Positions 28,777 to 29,129 of a DNA stretch of 64,000 bases are shown here, piece after piece. The DNA comes from Alphaproteobacteria bacterium. Lineage in GTDB: Bacteria > Pseudomonadota > Alphaproteobacteria > UBA828. The notes under the pieces were generated by a model that was given only the letters and a program-made list of their open reading frames with translations, searched no databases and was not told the DNA's origin. Where the stretch lies: positions 416,001 to 480,000 of the forward strand of contig CBDCQT010000013.1 of assembly GCA_965220745.1 (NCBI GenBank), in the 5' to 3' direction. Both the position numbers and the translations under genes were made by a program. Each line of letters starts with the position of its first letter. Positions within the stretch are counted from its first letter, which is position 1.

Positions 28777-28855
28777 CGATTCGACTCCTTGCTTGACGAA
28801 AGGAAGGAACACGGTAATTTCGCCCAAGTGGCCGCGACGAATCGCGGTGACCCGA

Positions 28856-28942
28856 ACGAAAGAGCCCCCCGCTGGAGGCGGGAGGCTCGATCAAAAGGGT
28901 CTGGTGTTGACCTGGAGAGGCGCACCAAACGGGCGTCAGAAC
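28856..28942 (-). ncRNA. Candidate ~85-nt cis-antisense sRNA
   Basis: Minus-strand TTGACA(28976-71)-N16-TAGGAT(28954-49) promoter; terminator GAGCCUCCCGC/GCGGGGGGCUC (28888-62) followed by UUUCGUU. Confidence 0.55.
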
Positions 28943-29006
28943 GCGGGTATCCTACCGACTCCCGCGAGCCTGTCAAGTGCGCTCTCCGAACGAAAGGAGA
29001 GCCAAC

Positions 29007-29081
29007 ATGGCTATCCCCTATCCTGTTCCAAAACAACCGAAACCTCCACATGTCCCGTGGCCGCCAGAGCCATGGTGTTAG
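29007..29081 (+). CDS. 24-aa proline-rich peptide MAIPYPVPKQPKPPHVPWPPEPWC
   Basis: SD AAAGGAG 7 nt before the ATG; upstream TTGACG-N16-TAATTT (28793-28820); 13-bp hairpin 29091-29121 just after the stop. Confidence 0.55.
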   Translation: MAIPYPVPKQPKPPHVPWPPEPWC

Positions 29082-29129
29082 TCGATCTTGCCCCCGGTGG
29101 GTCTGCATGACTCGCCGGGGGGGGGGGGG

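Follow-up and report, generated by a model that had tools for sequence, protein, structure and literature searches.

A conserved leader RNA with a predicted antisense switch, carried by IS1595-family transposons in uncultured Alphaproteobacteria

The present analysis concerns a short region, 28793-29121, of a 64,000-nucleotide stretch of an alphaproteobacterial genome (contig CBDCQT010000013.1, positions 416,001 to 480,000; hereafter the window), in which a promoter, a leader of about 180 nt, a strong Shine-Dalgarno sequence and a 24-codon open reading frame (ORF) follow one another on the plus strand, while signals for a small RNA run through the leader on the minus strand, all inside a transposon of the IS1595 family. 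The question raised by this locus is whether it is a type I toxin-antitoxin-like pair built around a proline-rich peptide, as proposed in an earlier sequence-only reading, or a regulatory part of another kind that the transposon carries. Comparison with related genomes leads us to regard it, with moderate confidence, as a portable translational leader that is gated by antisense RNA and moves together with IS1595 elements. On the best reading it is a cassette of about 200 bp, a passenger or a regulatory part, which IS1595-family transposons carry in a small set of uncultured Alphaproteobacteria. What is shown below comprises the features of the sequence, the covarying helices, the kept promoter, the borders of the element and the distribution of the family; from these we infer the production of both RNAs, the working of the switch and the purpose of the cassette. 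Every feature that the sequence-only reading had located in the region was found again where it had been placed, both by reading the sequence and by a script.

Two covariance models of the leader were used, R1 built from five sequences and R2 from 11, and other genomes are referred to by handles such as G011, with G000 denoting the genome of the window itself. The features of the cassette and of the ORF behind it are the following:

28793-28820, plus strand: candidate promoter of the sense leader, TTGACG (28793-98), 16 nt, TAATTT (28815-20), with TTGACG at the same place in G011 and G039.
28828-28988, plus strand: conserved structured sense leader RNA, scoring 147 bits with R1 (models R1 and R2, covariation, fold).
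28831-28848 (helix H1) and 28849-28853/28897-28901 (helix P2, enclosing a hairpin at 28862-28888), plus strand: 5' helices of the leader, from the R1 and R2 models.
28914-28925/28977-28987, 28929-28934/28968-28973 and 28942-28947/28961-28966, plus strand: three-tier stem of the minimum-free-energy fold.
28949-28976, minus strand: antisense promoter TTGACA-N16-TAGGAT, conserved and found by consensus scan, with its -10 in the apical loop of the sense stem.
28853-28942, minus strand: predicted small antisense RNA of about 90 nt, both ends of which were placed by promoter and terminator predictions.
28981-29002, plus strand: alternative hairpin GCUCUCC (28981-87)/GGAGAGC (28996-29002), sequestering the Shine-Dalgarno sequence (folding, script).
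29007-29081, plus strand: 24-codon proline-rich ORF MAIPYPVPKQPKPPHVPWPPEPWC, of doubtful coding status, not conserved and with no homologue.

The plus-strand RNA of 28826-29125 has a predicted folding energy of -144.6 kcal/mol (z = -5.8), which none of 200 shuffled sequences equalled. Its minimum-free-energy structure contains the long stem, in which GGAGAGGCGCAC (28914-25) pairs with GTGCGCTCTCC (28977-87), as well as both inner helices. In an early draft fold drawn from five sequences, H1 held 6 G-U pairs and a draft helix H3, later replaced by P2 in R1 and R2, held 11, all of them on the plus strand and none on the minus strand; because these pairs would be C-A mismatches on the other strand, the plus strand is favoured as the structured one.

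A consensus scan of both strands over 27400-30000, with a mean of 0.5 sites in shuffled sequences, listed a single promoter-like site, the antisense promoter (TTGACA-N16-TAGGAT, 28976..28949, minus strand). Downstream of it on the same strand, a terminator scan identified a hairpin at 28888..28862 followed by TTTCGTT (UUUCGUU in RNA). The RNA predicted between these signals is fully complementary to the 5' strand of the long sense helix, and when folded as 91 nt it forms two hairpins with z = -4.2 and none of 200 shuffles as good. In all nine full members of the family that were tabulated the promoter is kept, with a -35 of TTGAC[ACG] (once TCGACC), a spacer of 16-17 nt and a -10 with A2 and T6, the variants seen being TAGGAT, TAAGAT, GATATT, TATTAT, TATTCT and TACGTT; by eye, both copies in G047 also keep it, as TTGACG-N17-GATGAT. 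This conservation is of note because the apical loop of the sense stem, which contains the -10, is flanked by a covarying helix. The terminator hairpin likewise covaries, and its U tract is fair in G000, G039, G004 and the metagenome contig L033. The antisense gene that had been read within the leader thus gains support from comparison, as a predicted RNA.

The Shine-Dalgarno sequence GGAGAGC (28996-29002) is followed by CAAC and then, after this gap of 4 nt, by the ATG at 29007. It had been proposed that the leader has two mutually exclusive folds, and folding of the leader with and without the antisense-covered stretch agrees with this: when that stretch is barred from pairing, the predicted structure changes from the long stem to the GCUCUCC/GGAGAGC hairpin and the Shine-Dalgarno sequence is buried. 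The same alternative is available in 8 of 10 members, where the last strand of the long stem can pair instead with the Shine-Dalgarno sequence of the next ORF, with hairpin energies of -11.6 to -21.8 kcal/mol. The flanks of these hairpins that lie outside the Shine-Dalgarno sequence itself covary (GCUCUCC/GGAGAGC, GUCCUCC/GGAGGAC, GCCCUC/GAGGGC, GCCUCC/GGAGGC), which further supports the paired alternatives.

Patterns of distribution suggest a rare family confined to few lineages. The cassette region is single-copy in its own genome, and BLAST against 61 related genomes returned matches of 74-78% identity to 28828-28986 in G011 and G039, with homology to relatives ending at 28986-28988, right before the Shine-Dalgarno sequence. 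Of 49 genomes of the order, 5 contained a core pattern, at 9 places in all. In 185,579 species genomes the pattern occurred in 7 stretches, six of them in three metagenome-assembled genomes (MAGs) named 'Alphaproteobacteria bacterium', and a match in Pseudarthrobacter was judged to be chance as there was no similarity outside the pattern. Metagenome contigs held 2 stretches, of which L033 is a true member and L032, with no flanking similarity, was set aside. There were no matches to the core pattern in viral contigs, and blastn against 72,556 plasmids gave no match to the cassette. With the covariance models, which were used to score 49 + 150 + 8 + 21 genomes, R1 identified 15 places in 9 of the 49 genomes of the order and, in a sample of 150 others from the class, a single genome from a different family, G047, and R2 gave matches in 9 of the 21 genomes scored from the genus; beyond the genus, the RNA is thus present in one more family within the order and in one more within the class. 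The region 28600-29300 also occurs as contigs in four runs of one study, and no RNA run was listed for it. At the gathering thresholds of Rfam 15 the whole window gave no match besides two tRNA genes, 43928-43998 (plus) and 49277-49349 (minus), so the cassette RNA has no Rfam model; at E values up to 10 over 28600-29500 there were sub-threshold hits to ar14, RcsR1, Atu_C7 and two microRNAs, and membership of a known RNA family was rejected.

The helices covary across relatives. In a 12-row alignment to the model, 88.7% of 522 cells were paired, compared with 72.9 +/- 1.1 in 500 shuffles and 37-43% when partners were slid along, and 34 of the 48 modelled pairs showed changes on both sides.

The cassette lies within an IS1595-family transposon of 2672 bp (27611-30282), whose borders and transposase are as follows:

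27603-27610, no strand: left copy of the target-site duplication, CTCTGCAA, an 8-mer found identically at 30283-30290.
27611-27634, plus strand: left inverted repeat, 21/24 identical to the right repeat, with an inward promoter-like TTGACA-N17-TAAGTT.
27694-28680, plus strand: IS1595-family (ISXO2-like) DDE transposase of 328 amino acids.
30259-30282, minus strand: right inverted repeat, matched by script to the left one, with an inward TTGACA-N16-TATGAT 6 nt before the ATG of ORF110.
30283-30290, no strand: right copy of the target-site duplication, the same 8-mer as the left.

Carriage by an IS1595 element, asserted from the sequence, is borne out on several grounds. The transposase matches DDE_Tnp_IS1595 (PF12762, 2.4e-42) and, at its N-terminus, the zinc ribbon Zn_ribbon_IS1595 (PF12760, 3.5e-08); the inverted repeats agree at 21 of 24 positions by script count (27611-27634 against the reverse complement of 30259-30282); and the flanking duplication is of 8 bp, the length characteristic of the IS1595 family. 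In the relatives G006 and G015 the site is empty: the flanks at 27610 and 30283 are contiguous there with an overlap of 8 bp, from which it follows that 2672 bp were inserted in the window, where they interrupt an amidohydrolase gene (26952-27610 and from 30283) that is intact in both relatives. Within the element the order is transposase, cassette, 24-codon ORF, ORF76 on the minus strand and two more minus-strand ORFs, and the cassette begins 148 nt past the transposase stop codon.

Other copies are similarly associated with IS1595 DNA. Of 16 cassette loci, 10 have transposase DNA of this family no more than 3 kb away, mostly convergent with the cassette and fragmentary. G002 has an element of 4.6 kb in the order transposase, cassette, ORF94, dCTP deaminase-like gene. 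G039 has a miniature inverted-repeat transposable element (MITE) of 461 bp that consists only of IS1595-type inverted repeats, the cassette, which sits 75 nt inside the repeat, and a 54-codon ORF; two identical copies are present at different sites, flanked by the 8-bp duplications TTTTTTAT and TTTTTTTA. In G047, 38 nt separate an IS1595-type inverted repeat from the cassette, which is followed by the Shine-Dalgarno hairpin, a 53-codon ORF and the transposase, the stop of the short ORF overlapping the Shine-Dalgarno sequence of the transposase gene; a right inverted repeat was sought within 6 kb, allowing up to 6 mismatches in 23 nt or 2 in 15 nt, and none was found. The MITE of G039 and the element of G047 are inserted in T-rich runs (TTTTTTAT, TTTTTTTA and T8), suggesting a target preference for U-tract terminators.

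The mechanism we propose is consistent with these patterns. Transcription of the plus strand would produce a structured 5' leader composed of a 5' hairpin, a second domain and the three-tier stem, the last strand of which (..GCUCUCC) would have a choice of two partners, the upstream GGAGAG, leaving the Shine-Dalgarno sequence free, or the Shine-Dalgarno sequence itself, closing it. The promoter in the apical loop would fire on the minus strand to give an RNA of about 90 nt that ends at the terminator hairpin and is perfectly complementary to the upstream stem strand; in pairing with the leader, this RNA would release the anti-Shine-Dalgarno strand and turn translation off. Because the dose of antisense would rise with copy number, the gene behind the cassette would be repressed in a copy-dependent manner, that gene being a passenger at most loci and the transposase operon in one genome.

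A number of observations weigh against this interpretation. The sense promoter is weak, its -10 matching TATAAT at just 3 of 6 positions, which is why the consensus scan did not list it. Pairs were counted on an alignment that had been fitted to the model, with a weak and probably spurious match (15.4 bits) among its 12 rows; moreover, the family members come from few lineages and are not independent. By eye, the weak copy in G003 has no good antisense -35, and in G011 the U tract of the antisense terminator is poor. Two of the 10 members, G003 and G009, have no Shine-Dalgarno hairpin, and in G002 and G011_C3 the hairpin is predicted even when nothing is blocked, so that those copies may be constitutively closed. 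In the window itself the Shine-Dalgarno sequence and AUG are partly paired in a local hairpin in the free fold regardless. Finally, there is no common gene behind the cassette, the ORFs being unrelated between loci, and consequently no common regulated function can be named. The elements immediately behind the cassette at other loci are:

G011: ORF of 74 amino acids.
G039: ORF of 54 amino acids.
L033: HNH-like ORF of 96 amino acids (Pfam HNH 4.2e-4, below the curated cut-off).
G010: ORF of 46 amino acids.
G011_C3: ORF of 62 amino acids.
G002: 40-codon ORF overlapping the start of ORF94 (94 amino acids), then the dCTP deaminase-like gene.
G003: DUF1508 protein of 65 amino acids (3.1e-19).
G047: 53-codon ORF, then the IS1595 transposase of 339 amino acids.

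An alternative explanation could be a genuine type I toxin-antitoxin system, with the proline-rich peptide and the products of the other ORFs as toxins, the antisense RNA as antitoxin, and the whole as an addiction or defence module for the transposon. Type I loci such as hok/sok, tisB/istR-1, symE/symR and aapA/isoA combine a small ORF, a 5' untranslated region (UTR) with alternative folds and an antisense RNA that blocks translation, and the architecture here fits, with its small ORF, strong Shine-Dalgarno sequence, long structured 5' UTR and cis-antisense over that UTR. Some genes behind the cassette could plausibly do harm when overproduced (the HNH nuclease-like ORF of L033, the dCTP deaminase-like operon of G002), and the MITE of G039, with just the cassette and a small ORF, has spread. 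However, type I toxins are typically hydrophobic membrane peptides or nucleases, and no hydrophobic toxin-like stretch was seen in the ORFs inspected, MAIPYPVPKQPKPPHVPWPPEPWC included; the ORFs are not membrane peptides and are not homologous to one another (24, 46, 54, 62, 74 and 96 amino acids, the 40-codon and 94-amino-acid pair of G002, and the 65-amino-acid DUF1508 protein), and two of the units behind the cassette, DUF1508 and the transposase operon, are non-toxins. No Pfam or NCBIfam family was found for the ORFs of 24, 46, 54, 62, 74 and 94 amino acids, and no toxin family was matched (padloc not run). Conservation of the window peptide, a check proposed together with the toxin idea, was absent in relatives: BLAST with 28681-29460 against 61 genomes left 28987-29130 unmatched outside G000, and a six-frame protein search of the 49 genomes of the order gave, besides the window itself, a best E of 0.18 (none below 0.17), with no hit at cassette loci. 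The GC content at third codon positions (GC3) of the 24-codon ORF is 0.44, compared with 0.68-0.88 for the other tabulated genes of the region, and the ORF is probably incidental or lineage-specific rather than a dedicated toxin. With homology stopping before the Shine-Dalgarno sequence, no homologue of the peptide and unrelated genes elsewhere, the claim of a toxin-antitoxin pair around this peptide is not supported, and we consider the type I explanation improbable. Of the type I logic invoked for the locus, antisense gating remains plausible on the basis of the promoter, terminator and fold model; membership among toxin-antitoxin systems is not supported, no toxin ORF being conserved with the antisense partner across loci.

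Control of transposition is somewhat less improbable than that, and still unlikely in our view. Here the cassette would act in multicopy inhibition in the manner of IS10 RNA-OUT or IS200 art200, its ancestral place being the transposase leader as in G047, and the window copy would be a displaced relic, or the window and MITE copies would act in trans on other elements. The order in G047 (inverted repeat, 38 nt, cassette, Shine-Dalgarno hairpin, 53-codon ORF, transposase), the similar position of the cassette 75 nt inside the repeat in the G039 MITE, and the tight tie of the cassette to IS1595 DNA all favour it. Nevertheless, cassette followed by transposase is seen at one locus only, that for which no right repeat was found within 6 kb, and in the window the cassette starts 148 nt beyond the transposase stop, so that the antisense is not complementary to the transposase 5' UTR or start there and is so placed, by position, in G047 only. 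Pairing in trans was tried as a candidate and not supported, since the duplexes predicted for cassette RNA with the transposase leaders of G000 and G002 did not outdo shuffled controls (165/200, 180/200, 128/200 and 107/200 shuffles at least as good), and in these genomes most IS1595 copies have no cassette, G000 having 10 transposase matches and one cassette. More remote still, and very unlikely, is the possibility that one or both of the cassette RNAs regulate host genes in trans, for example a CCUCC-loop small RNA (sRNA) like ar14/cuckoo, the downstream ORFs being irrelevant. This would accord with a weak minus-strand Rfam match to ar14 (E 0.064), with a C/U-rich, CCUCC-like loop noted by eye in the first antisense stem-loop of 5 of 9 members, and with the known regulation of host genes by IS200 RNAs (PMC5435999). 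The ar14 score, though, is 22.6 bits against a gathering threshold of 58.8, and the loop, which follows of necessity from complementarity to the sense helix, is absent in 4 of 9 members; membership of ar14/cuckoo (Rfam RF02344) was rejected on that score and because the CCUCCUCCC loop motif is not kept across the family. The 5' strand, the anti-Shine-Dalgarno strand and the Shine-Dalgarno sequence covary three ways, which rather points to action in cis.

A more ambitious extension of the antisense-gated leader, doubtful in our estimation, is that the cassette is an RNA 'governor' carried and exchanged by IS1595 transposons and the MITEs derived from them, forming a copy-number-sensing antisense network with RNA-gated addiction or defence in some copies. 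Each copy, including the 461-bp MITEs, would emit antisense acting on the leaders of all copies, and the network would hold down the transposase in G047-type elements and, elsewhere, passengers that might be harmful, such as the HNH nuclease and the dCTP deaminase operon. If true, RNA-based control would thereby be described for the first time in the IS1595 family, and a regulatory RNA switch would itself be MITE cargo, which is rare.

For IS10, IS200 and plasmid replication, control by antisense RNA is textbook knowledge, IS10 with its RNA-IN/RNA-OUT pair being an insertion sequence that has a cis-encoded antisense RNA, and a full-text literature search returned no structured RNA or antisense cassette described for the IS1595 family. 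The counter-transcribed RNA (ctRNA, inc-alpha) of repABC replicons is the closest known mechanism, followed by IS200, and the cassette is a member of neither. The antisense-free leader of repABC forms a large stem-loop with the repC Shine-Dalgarno sequence and start codon single-stranded, and pairing with ctRNA refolds the leader into a repressing hairpin (PMC3155836); both systems have a small antisense encoded in the leader of the gene it regulates and a refolding logic, and both occur in Alphaproteobacteria. The host of the cassette, however, is a transposon and not a replicon, and its regulated gene differs between loci; the Rfam families of repABC ctRNA gave no match at E up to 10 over 28600-29500, and there are no rep genes in the element. 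Because the repressing hairpin here has no U tract, it should block translation and not end transcription. In IS200 the 5' UTR of tnpA contains a structure sequestering the Shine-Dalgarno sequence and is opposed by a cis-encoded antisense, art200, the two acting independently and directly on transposase mRNA (PMC5435999). The likeness is that of an insertion sequence combining Shine-Dalgarno sequestration with an antisense to the 5' UTR, whereas the cassette antisense is predicted to act indirectly, by freeing the anti-Shine-Dalgarno strand. Unlike in IS200 and IS10, moreover, the window cassette lies downstream of the transposase and before a passenger ORF, in an element of the DDE family IS1595.

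In plasmid R1, the antisense CopA, of about 90 nt, is directed to the CopT leader upstream of the 24-codon tap, which is translationally coupled to the next gene. A comparable overlap is seen in G047, where the short ORF's stop overlaps the transposase Shine-Dalgarno sequence, and in G002, where the 40-codon ORF overlaps the start of ORF94; in contrast, the 24-codon ORF of the window has no plus-strand gene after it, and there is neither a replication gene nor homology to CopA/CopT. Siguier, Gagnevin and Chandler reportedly described IS1595-family elements with passenger genes in 2009 (cited in PMC4611040), and the window element resembles these in its DDE transposase, zinc ribbon, inverted repeats, 8-bp duplication and extra genes.

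Since the cassette precedes unrelated genes and is, with its small ORF, the sole content of a transposing MITE, transposons may move RNA switches as modules, and such modular switches bear on how passengers, including nucleases and a defence-type deaminase, stay tolerable to the host. The antisense promoter, being in a loop of the sense fold, could be mutated without touching the sense structure, and together with the strong covariation and the three-way covarying switch this makes the cassette a clean system for testing antisense-induced refolding. Its carriers are uncultured MAG lineages, the RNA family is rare, and the switch is a prediction from sequence.

Several further genes and repeats occur within the window element, downstream of the cassette and in the transposase leader:

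27657-27681, plus strand: single repeat TCTATCAACCTATCCGTATCGGAAA in the transposase leader, of repeat family D1.
29091-29129, plus strand: 13-bp hairpin (29091-29121) in the gap separating the convergent 24-codon ORF and ORF76, its 3' arm running into 13 consecutive G (29117-29129; fold, script).
29130-29360, minus strand: ORF76, a conserved hypothetical protein, 58% identical over 57 amino acids to the product of a locus on contig C5 of the same genome.
29363-29446, plus strand: four direct repeats with the core CTATCCGTATCGAA, just upstream of ORF76 (repeat search).
29580-29879, minus strand: passenger ORF99.
29898-30230, minus strand: passenger ORF110, with one predicted membrane helix.

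The hairpin behind the 24-codon ORF has the arms 29091-29103 and 29109-29121 and two wobbles, U-G and G-U, which pair on the plus strand and so would be mismatches on the minus strand. The run of 13 G that it overlaps is of a length at which homopolymers are prone to slippage and assembly error.

Of the direct repeats of 17-25 nt with the core CTATCCGTATCGAA, one stands in the transposase leader and four upstream of ORF76. At the second locus of the same genome (G000:C5; L009 1490-1660), 10 tandem copies with this core stand beside the ORF76 homologue, and that locus adjoins the 3' part of an IS1595 transposase. The repeats look like an operator or iteron array for a small DNA-binding protein, which may control the transposase as well. 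ORF76 has no Pfam family, and its Atlas clusters are all 'hypothetical'; no Pfam or NCBIfam family was found for ORF76, ORF99 or ORF110. No second cassette was found at G000:C5: the equivalent gap showed no convincing similarity in alignment, and a DNA search of the genome found one copy.

ORF99 and ORF110 have a common C-terminal motif, AGRMH(A/V)(A/T)GTGTDK, and are predicted from sequence to be read from the promoter in the right inverted repeat. Because the ATG of ORF110 lies 6 nt past the -10 of the TTGACA-N16-TATGAT in that repeat, its mRNA may be leaderless. DNA 85% identical to the ORF110 stretch is found in an IS1595 element of G015, beside a gene that by eye looks like a methyltransferase.

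In the G002 element (L063, G002:C1 159-4734), the dCTP deaminase-like gene (Pfam DCD 1.2e-33) stands directly after the cassette and ORF94, and a protein of 556 amino acids with an HELMH motif is encoded on the opposite strand. dCTP deaminases are a known type of anti-phage defence.

Several cassette copies have themselves received insertions, with elements of the IS256, IS630, IS3 and rve integrase types and a MITE inserted beside or into them. In G014:C2 (L019/L038) a MITE-like insert of about 200 bp, with terminal inverted repeats AGGCTTATCCCC/GGGGATAAGCCT and a duplicated TATCGCCGAA, lies inside the cassette and breaks the antisense -10 region. An IS256-family element (G004, L034/L043) and an rve-integrase element (G014, L038) both start right after a shared CCTCCGCAGA, and this site 3' of the cassette may be a hot spot for insertion.

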